A stretch of 61,403 bases of DNA. It comes from an uncultured Methanosarcinales archaeon (lineage in GTDB: Archaea; Nanobdellota; Nanobdellia; Woesearchaeales; GW2011-AR4). The notes beneath the pieces were generated by a model. It was not told the origin of the DNA and searched no databases. It was given only the letters and a program-made list of their open reading frames with translations. Below are positions 25,101-54,055 of the stretch, in pieces. Where the stretch lies: NCBI GenBank assembly GCA_964585935.1, contig CAZPFO010000005.1, positions 1 to 61,403 of the forward strand, given 5' to 3'. Made by a program: the position numbers and the translations under genes. Each line of letters begins with the position of its first letter. Position 1 is the first letter of the stretch.

Positions 25101-28100
25101 ATGGTAAAAATGGTTGGCAAGATAACAAAACGGGATGGAAGAGTCGTCGATTTTGAAAAAGAAAAAATAACAGAAGCTATTTTCAAGGCTGCTGAGGCTG
25201 TTGGCGGCAAAGACAAGGAAACAGCAGAAAAGATTTCTGATGAGGTTATCAAAGAAGTAGAATCGAAGTTTAAAGAAAAAATACCCAGTGTTGAAGAAGT
25301 TCAGGATATAGTTGAAAAAACTTTAATTGAAAAAGGACATGCAACAACTGCAAAGGCCTATATCATTTACAGGCAGAAAAGGGCAGAGGAAAGAAAAACA
25401 AAGGCAGCAGTTATTGGCAAGGTTGTTGAGACAAAGCTTTCAGTTAATGCCCTCAAGGTTCTGAAGGAAAGATATCTTCTGAAGGATGATGAGGGAGATG
25501 TTATTGAGACTCCAAATGACTTGTTCAGGAGGGTAGCAAAAAATATTGCACATGCTGATTTGAATTATAATATCAAAAATGCAAAAGATAGTGAAGAGAA
25601 ATTCTATAATCTGATGGCTAATCTGGATTTTTTACCCAATAGCCCAACCTTGATGAATGCAGGCACAGACATACAGCAGTTAGCTGCTTGCTTTGTTCTG
25701 CCTATAGAAGACAGCATGGAAGGAATCTTCAAGACATTGATGCATGCTGCAATAATACATAAAAGCGGGGGAGGCACGGGTTTTTCTTTTTCAAGGCTCA
25801 GGTCAAGGAGCTCTCGCGTTAAATCAACACAGGGTGTTGCCTCAGGACCGGTTTCATTTCTAACCGTATATAATGCTGCAACTGATGTCATAAAGCAAGG
25901 CGGAAAAAGAAGAGGGGCTAATATGGGTATATTAAAGATTGACCATCCAGATATCCTGGATTTTATAAACTGCAAGGAAAAGAATGATGCTATAACTAAT
26001 TTTAATATTTCGGTTGCGCTGACGGAGGAGTTTGTGAGTGCTGTTGAAAAGAATGAAGAGTATAGTTTAATAGATCCTTCTAACAGGGAAGAGGTTACAA
26101 AGTTAAATGCTACTACTGTTTTTGACCTGATTGTTGCTGGTGCATGGCGCAATGGAGACCCCGGAATTGTTTTTATTGACAGGATAAACAAAGATAATCC
26201 AACTCCTGGTTTAGGGAATATAGAGGCTACTAATCCATGCGTAATTGGCAGTACCCTTATACCGACTGAATTGGGATTAATAAGGATGGAAGAATTGTAT
26301 AAAAAATACTCAGATGGGGGAGCCAGTATAGTTACTGATAACAGAGTCCCTATCCAACATGGTAGCGGAGGGCAAAAATTATTAATGTCAAATAAATCAG
26401 AAGGAGTTACCTTAAGACAGATTACAAGAGTTCTTAATAACGGAAAGAAGAAAGTTGTAAAAATAGTTACAAAATCAGGTTATGAAGTAGTTGTAACTAA
26501 AGATCATAAAGTTTTCTCATCAAATAAAGAATGGGTAAAAGTTGAGGAACTTAAAACAGGAGATAAAGTATGTATACAAAGCGGAGCAGGTGTTTTCAAT
26601 TCGGATAAAAAATTAAAAATTGATTTTGAAAAAATAAATAAATTATCAAAACGTATGAATTTGCCTGCAGAATGGTCAAAAGAGCTTGGGCAGGTTTTAG
26701 GTTGGTTGGTTGGCGATGGTTGGTTGAGAGATAAGGATGAAAACTGCAGAGCAGGTTTTGTTTTTGGAGAAGAAGATAAAAAACTTTTAGATTATTTTAA
26801 GAAGATATTAAATAAGTATTATAACCACAATATAAAAGAAATTAAAAGAGAAAACAGAGTATTTCATCTTTCTTATCATGGAAGAGGATTTGTAGAATTT
26901 TTCAAGGAATTAGGTGTAAAAGCTGTTTCATCAAAATACAAAGTGGTTCCTGAATCTATATTTACCTCAACAGAAGAAGCAGTTGTTGGTTTCTTACAGG
27001 CCTTGTTTACAGCAGACGGCACTATTGGCAAAAAGGACAAAGAGATAAGGCTAACATCATCCTCAAAAAAACTATTGAAAGGTGTTCAGCTGTTATTATT
27101 GAACATGGGCATGAAATCGAAAATTTATTCAAGGAAATATAGCAATTCTAAACCATTTACTTACAAAACAATTAATGGTGAAGACCGAGTTTATCATTCT
27201 GACGGTTTTTATTATGAATTGATAATTGATGGTTTAGGCAGGAGGTTATTTTTGGATAAAATTGGTTTTTTGAATAAAAAACAAGACAAGTTAGCTCGAA
27301 GTGTTAATTTCTGCAAGAAGATGGTCTTTGAGGATGAAATCGTATTAATCAAAGACTGTGGAGAGGAGGTTGTATATGATCTTACAGAACCTGAAACAGT
27401 CAGTTTCATAACAAATGGCATTGTGTCTCTGGATTGCGGTGAACAGCCATTATTGCCTTATGAAGCGTGTAATCTTGGCTCAATAAATTTGGGTAATTTT
27501 GTCAAAGACGAGGGTGTTGATTTGGAACGGCTCAAACAAGTTGTGCATGACTGTACCCATTTTCTTGACAATGTAATTGATATGAGCAAATATCCTATAC
27601 CTGATATAGATAAAATGGTCAGGGCTAACAGAAAAATTGGCCTGGGTGTTATGGGCTGGGCTGATATGCTTGTGCAACTTGGAATTCCTTACAACTCTGA
27701 AGAAGGGATTAAGATGGCTGATAAGATCATGGGCTTCATCAAAGAAGAGGCTGACAAGGCTTCTGTTGAGCTGGCAAAAACCAGGGGAGTATTTCCGAAC
27801 TGGAAAGACAGCATCTACAACAAGGAGAGCAAATTTTTCAAAGGGAATCATATGGAGATAAGGAATGCCACAAGAACAACTATTGCTCCTACTGGCACGA
27901 TTGGTATGATAGCGGATGCATCTGGGGGTGTGGAGCCTTTGTTTGCATTAAGCTATGTTAAGAGGGTTATGGATGGCCAGGAATTGTTTTATGTTGACAA
28001 AAATTTCAAAAAAGCGCTAGAAGAGAATAAAATTTGTGATGAAATCCTGCTGGAGAAAGTTATTGATAAGGGAACTATTGAGAATATTGAGGAGATACCT

Positions 28101-28454
28101 GAAAAGATAAAGAGGGTTTTTGTTGTTGCGCATGATATAACTCCTGAATACCATGTAAAGATGCAGGCAGCTTTCCAGAGAAATATAGACAATGCAGTCT
28201 CGAAGACAGTAAATTTCACCCATGATGCGACTGTTGATGATGTTAAAAATGTTTATATGCTTGCGCATAAATCAGGCTGCAAAGGAGTCACAATATACAG
28301 GGATGGCAGCAAGGGCGAGCAGGTTCTAAACCTGAACATTGACATCAAAAAAGAGAAAAAAGACAAATCAAAGTGCCCTGAATGCAGTGGAAGTATGGTC
28401 ATGGAAGAGGGGTGTGCAAAGTGCCATTCCTGCGGTTATTCTGTTTGCAGCTAG
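25101..28454 (+). CDS. nrdJ: class II (AdoCbl-dependent) ribonucleotide reductase with N-terminal ATP-cone, intein and C-terminal zinc ribbon
   Basis: ITKRDGRVVDF ATP-cone, FLPNSPTLMN, QQLAACFV, KQGGKRRGAN, TNP|CGEQPL split by intein, ACNLGSINL, TIAPTG, SKTVN, KGVTIYRDGS. Confidence 0.95.
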   Translation: MVKMVGKITKRDGRVVDFEKEKITEAIFKAAEAVGGKDKETAEKISDEVIKEVESKFKEKIPSVEEVQDIVEKTLIEKGHATTAKAYIIYRQKRAEERKTKAAVIGKVVETKLSVNALKVLKERYLLKDDEGDVIETPNDLFRRVAKNIAHADLNYNIKNAKDSEEKFYNLMANLDFLPNSPTLMNAGTDIQQLAACFVLPIEDSMEGIFKTLMHAAIIHKSGGGTGFSFSRLRSRSSRVKSTQGVASGPVSFLTVYNAATDVIKQGGKRRGANMGILKIDHPDILDFINCKEKNDAITNFNISVALTEEFVSAVEKNEEYSLIDPSNREEVTKLNATTVFDLIVAGAWRNGDPGIVFIDRINKDNPTPGLGNIEATNPCVIGSTLIPTELGLIRMEELYKKYSDGGASIVTDNRVPIQHGSGGQKLLMSNKSEGVTLRQITRVLNNGKKKVVKIVTKSGYEVVVTKDHKVFSSNKEWVKVEELKTGDKVCIQSGAGVFNSDKKLKIDFEKINKLSKRMNLPAEWSKELGQVLGWLVGDGWLRDKDENCRAGFVFGEEDKKLLDYFKKILNKYYNHNIKEIKRENRVFHLSYHGRGFVEFFKELGVKAVSSKYKVVPESIFTSTEEAVVGFLQALFTADGTIGKKDKEIRLTSSSKKLLKGVQLLLLNMGMKSKIYSRKYSNSKPFTYKTINGEDRVYHSDGFYYELIIDGLGRRLFLDKIGFLNKKQDKLARSVNFCKKMVFEDEIVLIKDCGEEVVYDLTEPETVSFITNGIVSLDCGEQPLLPYEACNLGSINLGNFVKDEGVDLERLKQVVHDCTHFLDNVIDMSKYPIPDIDKMVRANRKIGLGVMGWADMLVQLGIPYNSEEGIKMADKIMGFIKEEADKASVELAKTRGVFPNWKDSIYNKESKFFKGNHMEIRNATRTTIAPTGTIGMIADASGGVEPLFALSYVKRVMDGQELFYVDKNFKKALEENKICDEILLEKVIDKGTIENIEEIPEKIKRVFVVAHDITPEYHVKMQAAFQRNIDNAVSKTVNFTHDATVDDVKNVYMLAHKSGCKGVTIYRDGSKGEQVLNLNIDIKKEKKDKSKCPECSGSMVMEEGCAKCHSCGYSVCS
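26238..27434 (+). mobile_element. intein with LAGLIDADG homing endonuclease (399 aa) at TNP/CGE site of RNR
   Basis: Starts CVIGSTLI; block B VTKDHKV; LAGLIDADG motifs LGWLVGDG and LQALFTADG; block F VYDLT; ends NGIVSLD before C(+1). Confidence 0.95.
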
Positions 28455-34302: not shown

Positions 34303-35397
34303 ATGGCATTATTTAAACTTAAATGGAGCATGATGGTTATTCTTTTACTTTTTTTAGTTAGTTTTGTATCTGCTGAAAATGTTGTTAATTCTGAGGATGT
34401 GGTTGAGATTAACTTAGGTAATTATAAGATGCCAATTAATATGAAAATAGAAGAAAACTACTTTCTGAAAGGCGATTTATTTGAAGTTACAAGAGAATTA
34501 TTGTTTTACAATCTTAATGAAACAGAGAAATTCAATTTCCAAGAGACGACCAAATTAGATCAAAAAAAATCATATTACTCTTATTTCCAGTATGACGAGA
34601 AAGGAGAAATTATAAAACGAAAACCTTATCTTGAGACGGAATATACTAAGAATGGAACTGAGTTGTCAGTAACATTCCCAGATATTGATATTCTGAATAA
34701 ATCTTATTATTATATAATGGAAAAGTATAATGTAAAATATGAACATTGGCATGAAGGGGATTTTTGGTACCCTTTTGATGAATTTCCATTCAATAAAACA
34801 GTGAAAAATAGGCAAATAACCCACTCTTACGACTTGAAAATAAATTTACCAAAAACTTATGAAGCATATTATAATGATGAAAAATTTAGTTATGCTATAG
34901 AAAGTTACTTTGTAGATTCTACTAGCCATAGTTTAAGCAAAGGTTCAAATATAAACATAAGAGTATGTTTGCCACAATTTAGACCCTTCATTAGTAGTCT
35001 TAAAGAAGATTCAAGAGAAATCAAATTCCCTTCAGTAGTTATGCCTTCTATTCAGGATGATCCTTGTAAATTTATAGGTCCAAAAATTCACGTATTCTTT
35101 ACTATAGGGCGTAGTATGTTTCTCAAAGGAGTCTATTTTTTCTCATTAACTATTTTGGTTCTTCTGCTTTTATTATATTTCAGATATCCTCAATACTTCG
35201 GTGTAATTTTGGGTACTTCCATTACTATGTATATCTTTCAACAAGGAATAGTTCTTTTCTTTTCTCAAAATAGACCTACCACTTTAACATTATGGGACTT
35301 AAATGGTATTATAATCTTGATTATTATAATTCTTAAACTAATACCATTTGATAGGCTCAGAAGAGAACATAATCCCATAAATGAGTATACGGGTTAA
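34303..35397 (+). CDS. membrane protein: signal peptide, ~250-aa extracellular domain, three C-terminal TM helices; Pro-loop channel/DUF4436-like motifs
   Basis: VSA|EN cleavage-like site, WYPFD motif, pre-TM TIGRS, RPTTLTLWD loop between TM2 and TM3. Confidence 0.55.
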   Translation: MALFKLKWSMMVILLLFLVSFVSAENVVNSEDVVEINLGNYKMPINMKIEENYFLKGDLFEVTRELLFYNLNETEKFNFQETTKLDQKKSYYSYFQYDEKGEIIKRKPYLETEYTKNGTELSVTFPDIDILNKSYYYIMEKYNVKYEHWHEGDFWYPFDEFPFNKTVKNRQITHSYDLKINLPKTYEAYYNDEKFSYAIESYFVDSTSHSLSKGSNINIRVCLPQFRPFISSLKEDSREIKFPSVVMPSIQDDPCKFIGPKIHVFFTIGRSMFLKGVYFFSLTILVLLLLLYFRYPQYFGVILGTSITMYIFQQGIVLFFSQNRPTTLTLWDLNGIIILIIIILKLIPFDRLRREHNPINEYTG

Positions 35398-35399
35398 AA

Positions 35400-36491
35400 A
35401 TGAATGATAAACTATGTTTAAAACTATTGGAATATTGGCGTGATAATCCAGAAAAGATTACTGAATTGCCAGAAGAATTAAAAGATAAGATTACTGAAGA
35501 AGAAAAAGTCAATCTTATAGCTGAGGTAGGCGAACTAACCCCTCCGAGTATTTTTAGCCATATTGAAAGACTGAGGAAAAAAATTAAAGAAGATGAGGAA
35601 ATAAGAACGGATAGTAATACTATTCAGGAGAAAAATCCAGAAGCTATAGATTATTCAGATATAAAAAAAATAACTGATACATTATCAAGTACTGAATCTC
35701 GAGCATTGCGGTATGTATCCAGTAATTATTCCAATAAGGTACTAAATCATCTAAAAGACACTCATAGGGAAAAAATAAATAGTCTTTGTGATTTTTATGG
35801 TTATAATAAAGAAGTTTTAGTTAAGTATGAGAAGTTAAATCAAGAAGCACTTAAACTATCATTAAAAGATTTACGTTCATTAAGATACGAATCTAGTATT
35901 AGCCAAAATAAGAATCTCTTAAAATACTTAACAATCCACAGGAATGAATTAATAAAATTTTATTTTCAGTCAGATACAAGTAAAATAAAAATTGAAACTA
36001 CTAAAGAATCTGAAGCAGAAGGAAAAACCTATGCCGTATTTTTAAGTCATTCTCAAAAGGATAAATTACTTGCGAATAAGATAAAAAGTTTGCTTAATGA
36101 GATGGATGTGATTTCATTTGTTGCACACGATGATATCGAGGAAGGCGAGGTATGGGAACCAACGATTATAGAACGAGTAAAAAATTCCAAGATAATTATT
36201 GTTCTTGGAACCACAGATATAGAAAACTCGGCGTGGGTCAATTTTGAGACTGGTATAGGTTATGATAAAATGTTTCCAGTTTTGTTTAATAAACTCACTG
36301 ATAAGGTTTCATATATCAAAAACAAACAAGGAATTATAATAGATTATAATGAAGTTGATAAGAGTATTTTAAAATTTGTTTATACTGTTATTTCAAAGTT
36401 AGGACTCACCACTAAAAAAAGTGATGATGCTATTAGATCATTGGAATATTTTAAAGAATTAAAAGACTATATCTTAGAGAACTATAAATAA
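35400..36491 (+). CDS. TIR-domain protein with helical N-terminal region
   Basis: VFLSHSQKD, FVAHDDIEEGEVW, SAWVNFETG (candidate catalytic Glu) at ~aa 211-300. Confidence 0.85.
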   Translation: MNDKLCLKLLEYWRDNPEKITELPEELKDKITEEEKVNLIAEVGELTPPSIFSHIERLRKKIKEDEEIRTDSNTIQEKNPEAIDYSDIKKITDTLSSTESRALRYVSSNYSNKVLNHLKDTHREKINSLCDFYGYNKEVLVKYEKLNQEALKLSLKDLRSLRYESSISQNKNLLKYLTIHRNELIKFYFQSDTSKIKIETTKESEAEGKTYAVFLSHSQKDKLLANKIKSLLNEMDVISFVAHDDIEEGEVWEPTIIERVKNSKIIIVLGTTDIENSAWVNFETGIGYDKMFPVLFNKLTDKVSYIKNKQGIIIDYNEVDKSILKFVYTVISKLGLTTKKSDDAIRSLEYFKELKDYILENYK

Positions 36492-40954: not shown

Positions 40955-41500
40955 TTATTTATTTTTTATTAATTGGTCAATTTTTTTATGCAAACTTTCT
41001 AATGGACCATCATTCATTATTATTTTATCAGCTGCCTTGACACACTCGTTAAGCTGTTGCCCGGTCTTGTTTTTAAAATTTTCCCTTTCCTCCAGTTCCT
41101 TAAACTGCTCAATGGTTTTTGCATCTCCTAAACGGCCTCTTTCTTTTGACCTTTGAAACCTTAATCCTACCGGAGCGTCAACTGCTGCCAGGATAAAGCC
41201 TTTGTTTTTCCTTAATTCGTTTATTTCTTCCAGATTCCTTATACTGTCCACTGCAAAATTTTTATTTTTGTTTTCTTTTATTTTTTTATTGATTTTTTTT
41301 GCTAAATAGTTTGCTCCAGATTCTTCCCTTAACTCATTGCCGAGATTGATTAAATTTTCCCTTGTTGGCTCTAAGCATCTTTCTCCAGCCTCTTCCCTTA
41401 ATTCATCTGATAATGAGAGATAGATAAATCCTTTTTTTTTGAGGTAATTTGCAGCTTCTCCTTTTCCTGCTGCGTTTTTTCCTGTTAAGCCCAGTATCAT
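40955..41500 (-). CDS. P-loop nucleotide kinase-like protein (dephospho-CoA/NMP kinase fold)
   Basis: GLTGKNAAGKG Walker A, VDSIRNLEE, AVDAPVGLRFQR. Confidence 0.75.
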   Translation of the reverse strand: MILGLTGKNAAGKGEAANYLKKKGFIYLSLSDELREEAGERCLEPTRENLINLGNELREESGANYLAKKINKKIKENKNKNFAVDSIRNLEEINELRKNKGFILAAVDAPVGLRFQRSKERGRLGDAKTIEQFKELEERENFKNKTGQQLNECVKAADKIIMNDGPLESLHKKIDQLIKNK

Positions 41501-41955
41501 CTTATCTTCTTCTCTAATTTCTTCAATTCATCCTTGAACGAGGAAATGTCCTGGAATTCCCTGTAAACAGATGCAAACCTTATGTAAGCTACTTTGTCAA
41601 GTTTCTTGAGCTTTTTCATTATCAATTCGCCAATCTCCTTGCTCGTGATCTCTTTTTTGTTCTTTGCCTTGAGCTCTGCTTCGATACTGTCGATTGTTTT
41701 CTCAATCTCTTCCATGCTTACTGGCATTTTTTCGCATGCCTTAATAATTCCGTTCTTCAGTTTTTTGCTGTCAAAGCGCTCCCTTCTGCCGTCTTTTTTT
41801 ACAACAAAGATGTCAATTGTTTCTGTCCTTTCGTAAGTTGTGAAGCGTTTTTTGCACTTTAGACATTCTCTTCTCCTTCTTGTAACTTCCAAATCTTCAG
41901 TCTCTCTTTTATCAAGAACCTTTGTTTCAGGATTAGAGCAAAAAGCACATTTCAT
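41497..41955 (-). CDS. nrdR: transcriptional repressor NrdR
   Basis: MKCAFC...TKVLDKR...RRRRECLKCKKRFTTYE zinc ribbon + ATP-cone (VVKKDGRRERF), DKVAYIRFASVYREF. Confidence 0.96.
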   Translation of the reverse strand: MKCAFCSNPETKVLDKRETEDLEVTRRRRECLKCKKRFTTYERTETIDIFVVKKDGRRERFDSKKLKNGIIKACEKMPVSMEEIEKTIDSIEAELKAKNKKEITSKEIGELIMKKLKKLDKVAYIRFASVYREFQDISSFKDELKKLEKKIR

Positions 41956-43003: not shown

Positions 43004-43258
43004 TTATTTTTTCTTTTTCTTGCCTTTTTTCCTGCCTCTCTGCATCTTTGTCTCTACAACGTTTCCTTTCTTGTCAAGATAGTACAGGCAGCCATCTTTT
43101 CTCTTGATTCCTGCTTTATAGACAACATCCTGTTTTTTGCTTGTCTTTTTGCCTGCTCTTGCCATCTGGACACGAGCTACATTTCCTTTCTTGTCCAAGA
43201 AATAGAGATATCCTTTTGCTCTTTTTACACCACATTTACATACTACTTTTCCTGCCAT
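43004..43258 (-). CDS. small very basic protein with internal duplication
   Basis: Two copies of K.G.KR..G.LY.LDKKGNV....M.R; poly-Lys tail; GGAGGT RBS. Confidence 0.85.
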   Translation of the reverse strand: MAGKVVCKCGVKRAKGYLYFLDKKGNVARVQMARAGKKTSKKQDVVYKAGIKRKDGCLYYLDKKGNVVETKMQRGRKKGKKKKK

Positions 43259-44762: not shown

Positions 44763-45422
44763 ATGTCTATTTTACAAAGTTACAGCAAAAATGATGTAGT
44801 CCATTTTAATAAAGATATTGTCCAGGTTGTAAGAATAGCAAAAGAGATTGACAGGTTTTACGGCAGGTGCGAGTGTGATATTGACAAGTATCTTCCAAAG
44901 TATAAAAAATTCATTGAGTCTTTTAATAAGAAATACAAGGGCGTTGAAATAAAGGTCAGGGTTTGCCTGGATTGTATAAAGACCCGGCTTTTATTAAAAA
45001 GCGAGAGTATAAGGAAAATTTTTGATGATGCTGCTTCTAAGGTAATAGGGCTTAAGGCTGTAGGCGTTGCAAGGTTCAATATTGTGGATGTGACTGACGG
45101 CAACGGCTTTATCAAGGAAGTTGACAAGGGTAAAAAGCAGCTGCATATAACCTATTATGATCCTGAACTAGGCATAAGGTGTGTTTTCTTAAGCTGCGAT
45201 GAAAAGGAAAAAATGGTTGAGCTGCATTATGATGATAAGCAAATTGTTCTGGATAACAGCCCTGAATTTAAGATTGCATGTTTTTATGCCTTAAAAGATG
45301 GCTTTGACAGGAAGATAAAGATACATGAGGAAGGAGCAACTTTCGGCTTTGATGATTTGCTGAGTGAAAGGGAGAAAGCTGAATGGTTCCATGAGAAGCT
45401 GAATCCTAATGTTTTGGAGTGA
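44763..45422 (+). CDS. hypothetical protein
   Basis: 219-aa ORF with host-like composition, divergent from EndoQ. Confidence 0.7.
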   Translation: MSILQSYSKNDVVHFNKDIVQVVRIAKEIDRFYGRCECDIDKYLPKYKKFIESFNKKYKGVEIKVRVCLDCIKTRLLLKSESIRKIFDDAASKVIGLKAVGVARFNIVDVTDGNGFIKEVDKGKKQLHITYYDPELGIRCVFLSCDEKEKMVELHYDDKQIVLDNSPEFKIACFYALKDGFDRKIKIHEEGATFGFDDLLSEREKAEWFHEKLNPNVLE

Positions 45423-45457
45423 AAAGTAGTGTAGTTAGTTTGAGAATTCTTATTTTT

Positions 45458-46567
45458 TTATTCTTTTTTAAGTTTTTTTATAGCCTCACTATGAATCTGG
45501 CAAACTCTAACTTCGGTAACATTTAAAATCTTTCCAATTTCTTTCAGCGTAAGCTCTTCCAAATAATATAGCCTAAGTGTTTCTTGTTGGTATTTGCCAT
45601 TCAAGTTGCCAACCATCTCCCATAATCTTTCTCCCTTTTCCTTTTTCAACACTTCTCCTAACGGGTCAAGCGCATTCTGATCCTTTAATAATCTACTAAT
45701 ATCCATTATCTCTGGGTCTTTAACCCCTTTATGAATAAGCCTATCAAATGGGTGGGGGTTGTTCTTGATATGTGATTCTAATTCTAAATCATATAATTGA
45801 TCTAAGCTGATTTCCATTCCTTTTGCAAGCTCTTCCTTTTCAGGATACTTCCCTAATTTAGCTGTTAAATTGCTTTCCACACTCTTCTTTTTCTTTTCCT
45901 TTTTTAAAAGAGACCTTGATTTAATACTTATCTTCCTAAGATAATCTATAATTCGATAAGACACTATTTTGTTGATATAATTAGACCAATGATGATAACT
46001 TATTTTATTACCATTATTATTTTTCACTTTATTATGATATATATTACGTAAAGCCTTTGCACCCTCAGCAACTAAGGAGTCTATATCCGCTAATATTTCT
46101 ATACCGGATCTTGAAGCTTTTTGATATGAGGCAAGGCAAACAACAGGGGAATGAAGTATGGTAAATTCTTCTTCAGTTAAATCCTTTAATTGTTTGCCTG
46201 TAGTCTCGCAAAAAAACCGTAGATTTCTCCTCCAATGTTTAAAGTGGGTACTTTTATAATCGCCGTTATTGTTAGGTAGTTTTTTCTTGAAGTATAAGGG
46301 TATTGTGGTTTCATTTAACATGTACTTCTTTTTACCATTGGTTCTGTTTGTTGGGATATCACGATCTTTAATCTTATGATAAAAAGTATTTGAAGAATAT
46401 CCTCCTATTCCACATATAGTCTCCCTTGTAACAAAAGTTCCTAATAGAGGTTTTACCTTTTCTACTATATCTTGACTGACTCTATGATATGGATTATCCA
46501 TAATTGGCTTAAGTAATTTATTGTATCTGCCAGAGTAATATGCTATTGAGCTAGACTGACTTTTCAT
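45458..46567 (-). CDS. sigma-70 family (FliA/WhiG, sigma28-like) protein with ~130-aa N-terminal extension
   Basis: Region 2 DIDSLVAEGAKAL...YINKIVSYRIIDYLRK...RS; region 3 LGKYPEKEELAKGMEISLDQL; region 4 LRLYYLEELTLKEIGKILNVTEVRVCQIHSEAIKKLK. Confidence 0.85.
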   Translation of the reverse strand: MKSQSSSIAYYSGRYNKLLKPIMDNPYHRVSQDIVEKVKPLLGTFVTRETICGIGGYSSNTFYHKIKDRDIPTNRTNGKKKYMLNETTIPLYFKKKLPNNNGDYKSTHFKHWRRNLRFFCETTGKQLKDLTEEEFTILHSPVVCLASYQKASRSGIEILADIDSLVAEGAKALRNIYHNKVKNNNGNKISYHHWSNYINKIVSYRIIDYLRKISIKSRSLLKKEKKKKSVESNLTAKLGKYPEKEELAKGMEISLDQLYDLELESHIKNNPHPFDRLIHKGVKDPEIMDISRLLKDQNALDPLGEVLKKEKGERLWEMVGNLNGKYQQETLRLYYLEELTLKEIGKILNVTEVRVCQIHSEAIKKLKKE

Positions 46568-46677
46568 ATTCCCACATCCAAATTGTTAAATCTCATTATA
46601 AATTCCAACATATAAAATGATGTAATATTTAAATATTTCTATTGTTTAGTGGTGAAAATATTTGCAAAAAAGAAGTC

Positions 46678-48033
46678 TTACATCCCAATCCCTTTCGGCA
46701 GATTTCCGCCGAATTGTTTCATCACCTTATTGAGGTCTTTGCCCTTGAATTTTTTTATTAGTTTTTTGCTTTGTTTGTATTGCTTTAATAATTCGCGTAT
46801 TTCTTTGGTTGGTATTCCTGCGCCTTTGCTTACTCTCTCAATCCTGTTCTGGTCTATCAGCTCAGGGTCTTCAAGCTCTTTTTTTGTAAAAGAGTCCATT
46901 GCATAGCGCCATTTCTCAAGCTTCTTGTCCTGTACATCAAGCATTTCTTTTGGGAGCTTTACCTGGGAAAAGCCAGGCACCATCTCCATAACTTTTGATA
47001 AAGGGCCCATTTTTTTCATTGCAGCCATCTGCTCATACAGATCTATAAGATTAAATTCGCCTTTCAGGAACTTCTTGCCAAGATCTTCCACATCCTCTTC
47101 TTTTATTGCCTCTTTTGCTTTCTCCAACAAGGCTTCTAGGTCACCCATCCCCAATAACCTTCCAACAAAGCCTTGGGGATTAAAGTGCTCAAGGTCGTCT
47201 GTTTTTTCTCCAACGCCAATGAATTTTATAGGAGCTTTTGTAACAGCGCAGGCTGACAAGGCTCCTCCGGCTTTTGCAGTGCCGTCCATTTTTGTTGCGA
47301 TAACGCCCGTTATATGGCAGCTTTTATGGAACTGCTCTGCCTGCTTCTGAGCTGCCTGCCCTATGTCAGCAGAGATAACCAACAAATTTTCATCTGGATT
47401 TATTTCCTTGTTCAAGTATTCTATTTCCTCAATCAAGTCTTTTGACAAGGCATCCCGGCCTGCAGTATCGATTATTAAAATATCATGCTGGCCGAATTTG
47501 CCTTTAAACTCTTCCAATATATTCAATGGGTTTTTTTCTTTTTTGTTTAAGTAAACAGGAACTTTTACTTGATCGGCTATCTGCTCAATTTGATCCATAG
47601 CAGCAGGCCTGTGAGTATCAAGGCCGACTAAGGCAACCCTGTAGCCCCTTTTTGTGTAGTATTTTGCCAGTTTTCCTGCTGTTGTTGTCTTTCCAGAGCC
47701 AAACAACCCCACTAACATCATCTTAAAAGGCTTCTGCCTTATCTCTATTTTGTGCTGCTCTTTTCCCAAGAAATTAACCAATTCTTCATAGACGATGTTA
47801 ATCAACTGCTCTTTTTTTGTCAATGCCTTGAGCTCTTTTTCTTTTAATGCCCTTTCCTTGATTGTCTTTGTTAAATCAAAAACCAATTGCACATTGACAT
47901 CCGCCTGCAATAAGGCCCTTTGTATGTCTTTAACCAGCTCATTGATTAGTTTTTCATCTACAAACATTGATTTTGCTATCTTCTGCAGCGTGTTTTTCAA
48001 TGAACTGCCTAGTTTTTCCAGCACCATATTCAA
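46678..48033 (-). CDS. srp54: signal recognition particle protein SRP54 (probable start 48027)
   Basis: ALLQADVN, GLFGSGKTT, DTAGR, TKMD, GRLLGMGD, M-domain RIERVSKGAG. Confidence 0.96.
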   Translation of the reverse strand: MNMVLEKLGSSLKNTLQKIAKSMFVDEKLINELVKDIQRALLQADVNVQLVFDLTKTIKERALKEKELKALTKKEQLINIVYEELVNFLGKEQHKIEIRQKPFKMMLVGLFGSGKTTTAGKLAKYYTKRGYRVALVGLDTHRPAAMDQIEQIADQVKVPVYLNKKEKNPLNILEEFKGKFGQHDILIIDTAGRDALSKDLIEEIEYLNKEINPDENLLVISADIGQAAQKQAEQFHKSCHITGVIATKMDGTAKAGGALSACAVTKAPIKFIGVGEKTDDLEHFNPQGFVGRLLGMGDLEALLEKAKEAIKEEDVEDLGKKFLKGEFNLIDLYEQMAAMKKMGPLSKVMEMVPGFSQVKLPKEMLDVQDKKLEKWRYAMDSFTKKELEDPELIDQNRIERVSKGAGIPTKEIRELLKQYKQSKKLIKKFKGKDLNKVMKQFGGNLPKGIGM

Positions 48034-52224: not shown

Positions 52225-53961
52225 TTACAGCCTTATCTCCTGCTCTTTAGCTTCAATGTTCTTAAGAACTTTCTTGATTAAAGAATCAACCTTAACTCCA
52301 AAATGAAGCTTGCCATCTAAAGTTCTTACAGCAACTGTTTTATTCTTTTCCTCTTTTTCTCCAACATTTAATATTAAAGGTATTTCCTGCAGTTGCGCGT
52401 CCCTGACTTTGTATCCAACAGATTCTGTTCTTGAATCAATCTCCACCCTTAAACCTGCTTTTGAAAGCTCTTCTTTGACCTTTAAAGCATATTTTTCAAA
52501 CCTGTCAGCGACTGTTAAAACCTTGATCTGGACAGGCGCAAGCCATAAAGGAAACCTTCCAGCGTAATGCTCAATTAAAATTCCTAAAAATCTTTCCAAT
52601 GAACCATAAATTGCCCTGTGCACCATAACAGGCCTGTGCTGTTTGCCATCCTTCCCTTCATAATTAAGGTCAAATTTTTCCGGCATCGAGAAGTCAACCT
52701 GGATAGTGCCGCACTGCCATTTCCTGCCGAGGCAGTCTTTAAGGTGAAAGTCAATTTTTGGCCCGTAAAAAGCCCCCTCACCTTCGTTTATCCTATATTC
52801 TATCTTCTTAGCAGCTAAAGCCTGCTTCAAGAATTTCTCAGCCTTGTCCCATACATCCTTTGAGCCCATTGCCTTTTCAGGCTTTGTGCTTAGCTCAACC
52901 TCATAAGAAAATCCAAATGTTTTATAGATAAAATCGCATAACTCAATTAACTCGATAATCGAGTCTTTTAGCTGAGGCTCTTCACAAAATACATGCGCAT
53001 CATCCTGGGTAAAAACCCTTACCCTGAACAAGCCAGCTAAAACGCCTGAAAGCTCATGCCTGTGAACAAGGCCAAATTCTCCAGCCTTGAGAGGCAGTTC
53101 ACGATAAGAATGAACTCTTGTTTTATATATCAATAAATTTCCCGGGCAGTTCATTGGCTTTACTGCATAATCTTGATTGTCTATATTTGTGAGGTACATA
53201 TTCTCTTTATAATGGTTCCAGTGCCCTGATCTTAACCATAATTCCTTGTTCAATATTAAAGGAGTTTTGTTTTCTTCATAGCCTCTTTTTCTCATTTCAT
53301 TTCTCATAAACTCCACTAATCTGTTAAAGATAAATGTGCCCTTGTCATGGAAAAATGGCATGCCTGCTGCTTCGTCATGTATTGAAAACAACTCAAGTCT
53401 TTTCCCAATTTTTCTATGGTCGCGTTTCTCTGCCTCTTCAATAAGATGAAGATGATCTTTTAGCTGTTTTTCATCAGGAAATGCAATTCCATAGACTCTT
53501 GTGAGTTGTTTGTTTTTTGAATCTGCTTTCCAATATGCTCCTGATATTTTTGTAAGCTTAAAAGCCCTTATTTCAGAAGTGTTCTTAACATGCGGCCCTT
53601 TGCATAAGTCAATAAACTCACCCTGCTTATAGAAAGAAAGCTCTTTTTCAGGCAATTCATTAATCACCTCTGTTTTATAAGGGTTGTCTTTGAATAATTT
53701 TAAAGCTTCTTTTTTGCTGAGTTTTATTTTTTTTATAGGGAGCTTTTCATTTATTATCTTTCGCATTTCTTTTTTTATCCTGTTCAAGTCATTTGGGCCA
53801 AATTTCTGATCAACCTCAAAATCATAATGAAAGCCCTCTTCTATTGGCGGCCCTATTGCTATCTTTACGTTTTTGTAAAGCCTTGTTAAAGCATGCGCAA
53901 ATACATGCGCAGCAGAATGATTGAAAATGTCCTTATCATAATGCTGTTTTTTCTCTTCCAT
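52225..53961 (-). CDS. thrS: threonine--tRNA ligase, bacterial type, no N-terminal TGS domain
   Basis: HSAAH and DLCKGPH editing motifs, RDHRKIG, KPMNCPG, HRHELSG, QCGTIQVD, HRAIYGSLERF; probable ATG 53961 (ORF track extends to 54033). Confidence 0.96.
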   Translation of the reverse strand: MEEKKQHYDKDIFNHSAAHVFAHALTRLYKNVKIAIGPPIEEGFHYDFEVDQKFGPNDLNRIKKEMRKIINEKLPIKKIKLSKKEALKLFKDNPYKTEVINELPEKELSFYKQGEFIDLCKGPHVKNTSEIRAFKLTKISGAYWKADSKNKQLTRVYGIAFPDEKQLKDHLHLIEEAEKRDHRKIGKRLELFSIHDEAAGMPFFHDKGTFIFNRLVEFMRNEMRKRGYEENKTPLILNKELWLRSGHWNHYKENMYLTNIDNQDYAVKPMNCPGNLLIYKTRVHSYRELPLKAGEFGLVHRHELSGVLAGLFRVRVFTQDDAHVFCEEPQLKDSIIELIELCDFIYKTFGFSYEVELSTKPEKAMGSKDVWDKAEKFLKQALAAKKIEYRINEGEGAFYGPKIDFHLKDCLGRKWQCGTIQVDFSMPEKFDLNYEGKDGKQHRPVMVHRAIYGSLERFLGILIEHYAGRFPLWLAPVQIKVLTVADRFEKYALKVKEELSKAGLRVEIDSRTESVGYKVRDAQLQEIPLILNVGEKEEKNKTVAVRTLDGKLHFGVKVDSLIKKVLKNIEAKEQEIRL

Positions 53962-54020
53962 ATAGCTTGTTGCAACACTTTTGTTTATATATTTTATGAT
54001 TATCAATTGATACGGTGATT

Positions 54021-54055
54021 TGTCAAGAACCACTGGTCAGAAATTCTGATATTTT
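54021..54055. repeat. internally deleted copy (C) of the palindromic element
   Basis: TGTCAAGAACCAC...TCAGAAATTCTGATATTTT retains both ends of copies A/B. Confidence 0.65.

Follow-up and report, generated by a model that had tools for sequence, protein, structure and literature searches.

Archaea initiate transcription with TBP, TFB and TFE, so that a sigma-derived protein found in one of them serves as a natural experiment on what in a sigma factor remains of use without the bacterial polymerase. Which parts have been kept, and for what, is the question raised by a sigma-like gene on a Woesearchaeal contig (GenBank CAZPFO010000005.1, assembly GCA_964585935.1), of which we analysed a stretch of 61,403 nucleotides, here called the window. 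An earlier note, made from the letters of the sequence, had described the product as a full sigma28 (FliA/WhiG)-like protein with an extra N-terminal domain, and had offered two roles for it: a sigma scaffold repurposed as a DNA-binding regulator, or an effector acting on the RNA polymerase (RNAP) of a bacterial partner. We find a single-gene insertion into an archaeal chromosome, in which a rare N-terminal module is fused to the C-terminal part of a sigma factor. The outcome, as read in the sequence, is that the helix-turn-helix (HTH) that reads the -35 element was kept and the core-binding, DNA-melting domain was lost.

The gene and its parts

The open reading frame (ORF) has 369 codons, is intact, and lies on the minus strand at exactly the place given in the earlier note, positions 45458-46567. 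At the gene's composition (stop probability 0.085 per codon), the chance of 369 codons without a stop is ~5e-15. The protein is basic (isoelectric point 9.5), and no signal peptide or transmembrane segment was found in it. Its parts are listed here by window coordinates.

45458-46567, minus strand: 369-residue ORF made up of the N-terminal module, a degenerate helical linker and sigma regions 3-4 (from the ORF itself, family matches and copies in two more assemblies)
46250-46528, minus strand: N-terminal module, residues ~14-106, a putative winged-helix-like DNA-binding domain (from homology to three repeats of a second Woesearchaeal protein, P0052, a hidden Markov model (HMM) of the module and a low-confidence AlphaFold model)
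45968-46249, minus strand: residues ~107-200, helical, at the position of sigma region 2.1-2.3; homology to region 2 is undetectable, and the segment is a degenerate remnant or a replacement
45668-45967, minus strand: residues ~201-300, the end of region 2.4 (IIDYLRK) and region 3 (from WhiG/FliA alignments and a FliA HMM; below the cutoff of Pfam Sigma70_r3)
45461-45667, minus strand: residues 301-369, sigma region 4, with 4.1 and the 4.2 HTH (YYLEELTLKEIG...VRVCQIHS) (from Pfam Sigma70_r4, the FliA HMM and conserved columns)

How much of a sigma factor survives

Family models recognize the C-terminal part of the protein with confidence and the region 2 position not at all. The HMM searches proposed in the earlier note placed Pfam Sigma70_r4 (PF04545) well above its cutoff (51 against 24.1 bits, E 1e-13) and Sigma70_r3 (PF04539) below it (17.9 against 25.3 bits), and gave no match to Sigma70_r2 (PF04542), even at E<=10. 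The cutoff of the sigma-70 superfamily model TIGR02937 was passed (66.8 against 42.9 bits). The top NCBIfam match was FliA_WhiG, TIGR02479, at 115.3 bits and E 3e-33, short of the curated cutoff of 189.6 bits, and NF005413 was also missed (100 against 201 bits). Among solved structures, the top matches were WhiG (6pfv, 62 bits) and FliA (1rp3, 6pmi), all of which align from residues ~196-203 to 367.

A MAFFT alignment with 29 bacterial FliAs maps residues 131-369 onto regions 2.1-4.2. As this alignment is forced and global, the regions were scored singly with a FliA HMM built without the query. Region 4 (301-369) scored 72.9 bits. Region 3 (216-300) scored 27.7 bits, against a maximum of 12.9 in 1000 shuffles. 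Region 2 (125-215) scored 1.3 bits, inside the shuffle noise (maximum of 1000, 7.5), and just its last eight residues, the IIDYLRK end, aligned. A profile comparison of residues 100-206 with FliA (hhalign) gave a probability of 0.7%, out of register.

The asymmetry is equally plain in the conserved positions. Of the alignment columns that reach 80% conservation or more in FliAs, the protein keeps 21 of 26 in region 4 and 10 of 27 in region 2, where D164S (region 2.2) and the change of R-I-R-G to I-V-S-Y (regions 2.3/2.4) are among the replacements. Identity to FliAs averages 57% in region 4.2, 19% in region 3 and 23% in region 2, against FliA-FliA values of 70%, 40% and 59%. The better conservation of region 4 was thus, if anything, understated in the earlier note. 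Its statement that regions 2, 3 and 4 are present in order holds strongly for region 4, is borne out for region 3 by the FliA HMM and not by Pfam, and is not borne out for region 2; "full sigma28" was an overstatement, given the missed FliA/WhiG cutoff and the undetectable region 2. We conclude that residues ~200-369 are demonstrably sigma-derived, of the FliA/WhiG type, by sequence comparison, and that the segment standing in for region 2.1-2.3 is, at most, a remnant too degenerate to detect.

The AlphaFold model is confident at residues ~100-369, and places predicted helices (residues 107-200) where sigma-2 would lie. Two polymerase-bound roles draw on it. In the first, the protein would be a genuine sigma factor for a foreign bacterial-type RNAP, for instance as an effector sent into a bacterial partner or host, or for a mobile element replicating in bacteria. 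The model aligns over 240-270 columns with sigma-28, SigD, WhiG and SigB, and some HMM alignments reach back to residues 118-131. However, the model was driven by the forced FliA alignment and is not independent evidence of a sigma-2 fold; region 2, the main determinant of core binding and DNA melting, is undetectable, with conserved residues replaced; and the protein has neither of the two export or membrane signals that were sought. No FlgM/RsiG-type anti-sigma factor and no flagellar, chemotaxis, secretion or sporulation genes occur in the 61-kb window, whereas the two best bacterial matches (P0049, P0050) do sit in flagellar operons (flhB-flhA-flhF-flhG-fliA). Nor are loose sigma-28 promoter matches (TAAA-N15-GCCGATAA) enriched in the window, with 20 found against 14.7 +/- 3.9 expected. 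We regard this role as very improbable, and the effector option of the earlier note finds no support, the core-binding region being the most degenerate part of the protein. A scan for sigma-70 promoters and terminators was set aside as uninformative for an archaeon.

In the second role, the protein would bind to the archaeal RNAP or pre-initiation complex, perhaps at the clamp coiled-coil, and add promoter selectivity to TBP and TFB. Bacterial beta-prime and archaeal Rpo1 share this coiled-coil as a conserved element, and in bacteria sigma-2 binds it; the predicted helices at the sigma-2 position would be suitably placed. Against this, residues 107-200 have no detectable sigma-2 similarity, and a singleton cannot serve Woesearchaeal transcription in general. 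Castelle et al. (PMC8204110) left open the manner in which sigma factors of DPANN archaea could work, which gives such a contact some room; we nonetheless consider it quite unlikely. A more elaborate version, in which the sigma-4 HTH and the N-terminal module would read DNA while the helices at the sigma-2 position contact the RNAP clamp or TFB as a working archaeal promoter-specificity factor, strikes us as distinctly improbable. If true, it would mean that a bacterial initiation-factor scaffold has been wired into the TBP/TFB system, and that the pairing of module and sigma-4.2 in two Woesearchaeal lineages, described below, marks a small undescribed class of hybrid regulators.

An archaeal host and a genuine junction

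The gene follows srp54 and faces a convergent gene, orf219.

46678-48033, minus strand: archaeal srp54, the upstream flank of the insertion (from SRP54 comparisons)
44763-45422, plus strand: orf219, a conserved Woesearchaeal hypothetical gene, the downstream convergent flank; it adjoins srp54 in 32 related loci

The SRP54 is archaeal, as the earlier note had it: it scores 442-366 bits against the Pyrococcus (442), Methanocaldococcus and Sulfolobus proteins and at most 300 against bacterial Ffh, and is 65-81% identical to orthologs in 80 metagenome-assembled genomes labelled Woesearchaeota, Nanoarchaeia or Nanoarchaeota. The window also encodes an S-layer protein, a Rad50-type ATPase, TrmB/Lrp/ArsR regulators, archease/RtcB and split POR subunits.

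For the sigma part, the nearest relatives are bacterial without exception, as they would be had a bacterial gene been mis-joined or mis-binned onto an archaeal contig. Yet the srp54-sigma-orf219 sequence is identical across three separately produced assemblies. The arsR-srp54-sigma-orf219 stretch occurs at 99.96% identity in GCA_006243145.1, a separate metagenome deposit, and at 100% in the Logan assembly of SRR6439359; the two single-nucleotide differences sit in the beta-propeller gene, distant from the junctions. The guanine-plus-cytosine content of the gene (GC 0.324; 0.286 at third codon positions, GC3) and its synonymous codon usage are mid-distribution for window genes, both flanks are syntenic with Woesearchaeal genomes, and the sole homolog of the N-terminal module is itself Woesearchaeal. 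The chimeric contig that the earlier note had named as a possible undoing of its reading is effectively excluded, and an artefact of assembly or binning has, in our judgement, a negligible chance of being the explanation. The window holds a further bacterial-like gene, a threonyl-tRNA synthetase (52225-54033, minus strand) of bacterial type (TIGR00418, 714 bits, against 204 bits for the archaeal PRK03991).

A single-gene insertion at a variable spot

Searched exhaustively with HMMER, 1.84 billion representative proteins yielded 3965 relatives at E<=1e-3 and, at E<=1e-30, none except the protein itself; the next-best matches (at most 92 bits) are bacterial FliAs of ~250 residues. A scan of genome contigs with the sigma-like protein gave no match, and no sigma-like product is encoded at any of the 80 related Woesearchaeal srp54 loci.

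The closest of these loci (L003; SRP54 81% identical) has the gene order of the window, srp54 followed by convergent orf219, a PHP-family gene, orf84 and DUF1385, with 55 nucleotides in place of the sigma-like gene. Among 30 relatives having both flanks, the srp54/orf219 junction spans at most 90 nucleotides in 10, and in the other 20 it holds 0.2-3.4 kb of diverse, mostly unrelated ORFs. Across Woesearchaeales, the convergent junction (45423-46677 in the window; the corresponding gap in L003-L066) varies in what is inserted there, and the cargo of one lineage is the sigma-like gene, a lineage-specific single-gene insertion. Within the window we found no att-like repeats, integrase or viral genes marking the insertion, and no tRNA or Rfam feature usable as an integration mark. 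A flanking repeat (31 nucleotides, 77%, T-rich) was rejected as an att site, being low-complexity Lys-codon sequence.

Two observations concern the flanks. The orf219 product carries Cys-rich motifs and has no Pfam, PHROGs or PADLOC family. Bacterial fliA follows flhF, which encodes an SRP54-family GTPase, and flhG (L085/L086), and the sigma-like gene follows a true archaeal srp54; this likeness of order is probably fortuitous, as relatives without the sigma gene carry the orthologous srp54 in a syntenic position.

A rare module with a second tie to region 4.2

Residues ~14-106 belong to no family in Pfam, PHROGs or PADLOC; the sole PHROGs/PADLOC match to the N-terminal half, mad1 (E 0.008), was judged noise. 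In the exhaustive search (phmmer), the module was found elsewhere only in P0052, a protein of 557 residues that matches it three times, as tandem copies. The repeats are 27-35% identical to the query module, with 12 invariant positions, and score 130-137 bits each with the module HMM (query, 120 bits); Pfam matches neither the query module nor any of the repeats. Other long sigma relatives (P0178, P0102, P0124, P0101 and more) have N-terminal extensions unrelated to this one, and the contigs of P0124 and P0101 are of insufficient length for a taxonomic placement. Word-indexed searches with the module alignment and with P0052 gave nothing new, a metagenome scan returned just the P0052 organism again, and viral contigs scanned with the module and with the whole protein held no relatives.

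The P0052 contig (165 kb) is also Woesearchaeal: TFIIB and L10e are present, and its TFB clusters at 90% identity or more with Woesearchaeota proteins. Directly downstream of P0052 lies a 45-residue ORF that is a FliA-type region 4.2 (52 bits), and upstream are a sigma-54-activator-type AAA+ gene and an ORF of 97 residues with a partial module at its end. The locus was seen in three contigs (L083, L084, L089) and again in no fewer than eight others, from JGI samples. A selection test on the region 4.2 ORF met zero variation, a further entry (P0224) being the same ORF with a different start call. The island as a whole (L083, 8424-12627) encodes the AAA+ protein with a Fis-type HTH, the 97-residue ORF, P0052, the region 4.2 ORF and a DnaJ-like protein; by sequence it is a small set of bacterial transcription parts inside a second Woesearchaeon.

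A very rare module is thus tied to region 4.2 in each of two Woesearchaeal lineages, as a fusion in the first and as a neighbouring gene in the second, which makes coincidence unlikely. The linkage suggests one of two explanations: an ancestral fusion common to both lineages and since decayed in the second, or a partnership in function.

The earlier note saw a resemblance to an excisionase-type HTH in the N-terminus. The AlphaFold model of the module is poor (predicted local distance difference test, pLDDT, ~50), with secondary structure in the order beta-alpha-alpha-beta-beta-alpha. All Foldseek matches to this model are winged-helix DNA binders, the best at a non-significant E of 0.37, and the best local fits, likewise non-significant, are to BldC, SoxR, RacA and TorI, with superpositions of 2.5-3.1 A over ~48 residues. 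Neither Pfam nor Foldseek gave a significant profile or fold match to the HTH_17/MerR families. The excisionase-type assignment thus keeps a weak structural resemblance (to TorI, BldC and SoxR) and nothing significant in sequence or fold, and we treat it as a reasonable lead, rather than a result.

Expression signals

The following signals lie between srp54 and the start codon.

46626-46633, minus strand: TATA-like box TTTAAATA, 66 nucleotides upstream of the ATG (read from the sequence; its motif class is shared by ~20 of 51 genes)
46573-46581, minus strand: candidate Shine-Dalgarno-like sequence GGATGTGGG, 6-14 nucleotides upstream of the ATG (read from the sequence)
46665-46670, minus strand: run of six T, 8 nucleotides past the srp54 stop codon (read from the sequence)

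The box stands where the earlier note had put it, farther from the start codon than the boxes near -30 of most genes here, and at this distance implies a leader of ~35-40 nucleotides. Oligo-T termination is established for archaea, and the T run is likely to be such a terminator between srp54 and the sigma-like gene. Promoter, Shine-Dalgarno and terminator signals are together plausible, and singly non-significant in AT-rich intergenic DNA. Across the window, TTTAWATA occurs at -28 to -38 from the start codon in ~20 of 51 genes, a clustering that indicates mostly leaderless mRNAs, the archaeal pattern. A minority of genes (those for a ribonucleotide reductase and the repressor NrdR, and the sigma-like gene) have their boxes farther out, at -65 to -85, together with Shine-Dalgarno-like sequences.

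Passenger or regulator

Two readings of the gene's present state remain to be weighed. It could be a functionless passenger, horizontally acquired, perhaps left over from a mobile element or virus, still intact and heading for decay. It is a singleton among the representatives searched and absent from the related loci, its site is a hot-spot occupied by unrelated cargo in other lineages, its region 2 is already degenerate, and the only other module locus keeps just a 45-residue sigma-4.2 fragment, which looks like decay. Sigma genes have moreover been reported in DPANN viruses and a prophage (PMC12647753). Set against these points are an ORF of 369 codons left intact in a gene of 32% GC, host-like codon usage, which implies long residence, and a plausible promoter, Shine-Dalgarno sequence and upstream terminator of its own. 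There are no neighbouring integrase or viral genes, and no viral contig holds a relative. Divergence is strongly non-uniform, with the region 4.2 HTH nearly fully retained, which neutral decay would not yield. We think a passenger somewhat unlikely, while giving it real weight.

We favour, with evenly balanced confidence, the first option of the earlier note: that the protein is a sequence-specific DNA-binding transcription regulator derived from a captured bacterial sigma gene. The retention of region 4 with the loss of region 2, the archaeal setting and the sigma ancestry all favour it, and the intact ORF with mid-range codon usage and GC3 argues for long residence or function. The C-terminal ~170 residues descend from a bacterial FliA/WhiG-type (sigma-28) factor and are fused to the rare N-terminal, putatively winged-helix-like module, and the gene is inserted at the variable spot between srp54 and orf219. 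On this reading, it would have been acquired horizontally, possibly via a mobile element or virus. In a cell where the bacterial RNAP core is absent, the core-binding, -10-recognition region 2 would have degenerated past detection, and the -35-reading HTH of region 4.2 has stayed almost intact. Expressed from its own archaeal promoter, the protein would contact DNA through the sigma-4 HTH, with the N-terminal module probably a second DNA-binding or oligomerizing unit, and would act as an ordinary regulator with no polymerase-bound sigma function.

Several points weigh against a regulator. Free full-length sigma factors usually bind DNA poorly through autoinhibition, so DNA binding by sigma-4 is an assumption here. 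The N-terminal module has no significant match to a known DNA-binding family, and its model is of low confidence. Finally, the P0052 locus may show the decay of a similar gene, pointing to dispensability.

Other features of the window

A TIR-domain protein (35400-36491, plus strand) with ThsB-like PADLOC matches (E 1e-9) is preceded by an uncharacterized protein of 364 residues (34303-36491 together). Both genes are unusually AT-rich (GC ~0.29), and the two proteins may be a Thoeris-like defence pair in a DPANN archaeon. The ribonucleotide reductase (25101-28454, plus strand) is of class II, B12-dependent, and has a long leader and an intein-like insert, its residues ~434-679 matching a DnaB-intein region; the gene for the bacterial-type NrdR repressor (41497-41955, minus strand) is 13 kb away. 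A basic protein of 84 residues (43004-43258, minus strand) has two internal repeats (K.G.KR..GYLYFLDKKGNV...) and is conserved in two related loci (L003, 87%; L038, 54%), with no family assignment.

Comparison with known systems

FliA and WhiG, group 3 sigma-70 factors, are the closest known proteins: the end of region 2.4 and regions 3 and 4 of Aquifex FliA (1rp3) and Streptomyces WhiG (6pfv) align with the query, and the region 4.2 recognition helix is nearly identical (VRVCQIHS against the FliA consensus SRVCQIHS). Unlike them, the query misses the family cutoff, has an undetectable region 2 and carries ~200 extra or unrecognizable N-terminal residues. It also differs in its setting, an archaeon without bacterial RNAP, a FlgM/RsiG-type anti-sigma factor or a flagellar regulon, and in its archaeal-type promoter.

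The N-terminal module resembles MerR/excisionase-type proteins (BldC, TorI, the SoxR N-domain) in its predicted beta-alpha-alpha-beta-beta-alpha order, and the tandem modules of P0052 recall BldC, whose copies bind direct repeats head-to-tail. Set against a classification with BldC, TorI or SoxR are the non-significant match (E>0.3) and the pLDDT of ~50. The P0052 locus is like the query in having the same rare module physically associated with region 4.2 of FliA type, and in belonging to the same order-level group of archaea. It is unlike it in that the module is triplicated and stands apart from a minimal sigma-4.2 ORF, with regions 2 and 3 missing and an AAA+ gene as a neighbour.

Sigma-70 family genes (fam00359) have been known in DPANN archaea, especially Woesearchaeota, since 2021 (Castelle et al., PMC8204110), in a report that excluded mis-binning, detected no anti-sigma factors and did not settle how the proteins act. 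A sigma factor in a DPANN archaeon is as such already known. A search for fam00359 in the supplementary data of that report gave no entry. Like those genes, the query is a bacterial-type sigma-70 gene on a verified Woesearchaeal contig, with no anti-sigma factor. Unlike them, it is an orphan whose N-terminal fusion is unique and whose region 2 is degenerate, at a locus empty of it in all 80 relatives. As an orphan in one population, the gene probably has a small biological reach.

What is new, beside the known DPANN sigma genes, is the demonstration, for this example, that nothing beyond regions 3-4 is left of the sigma factor, a unique fusion that brings in a module not described before, the second association of that module with a stand-alone region 4.2, and the clean empty-site evidence of a single-gene insertion. 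These findings support a view of DPANN sigma-70 genes as repurposed DNA binders, rather than hybrid transcription machinery, and the N-terminal module with its repeated tie to region 4.2 offers a concrete, cheap handle for testing it.

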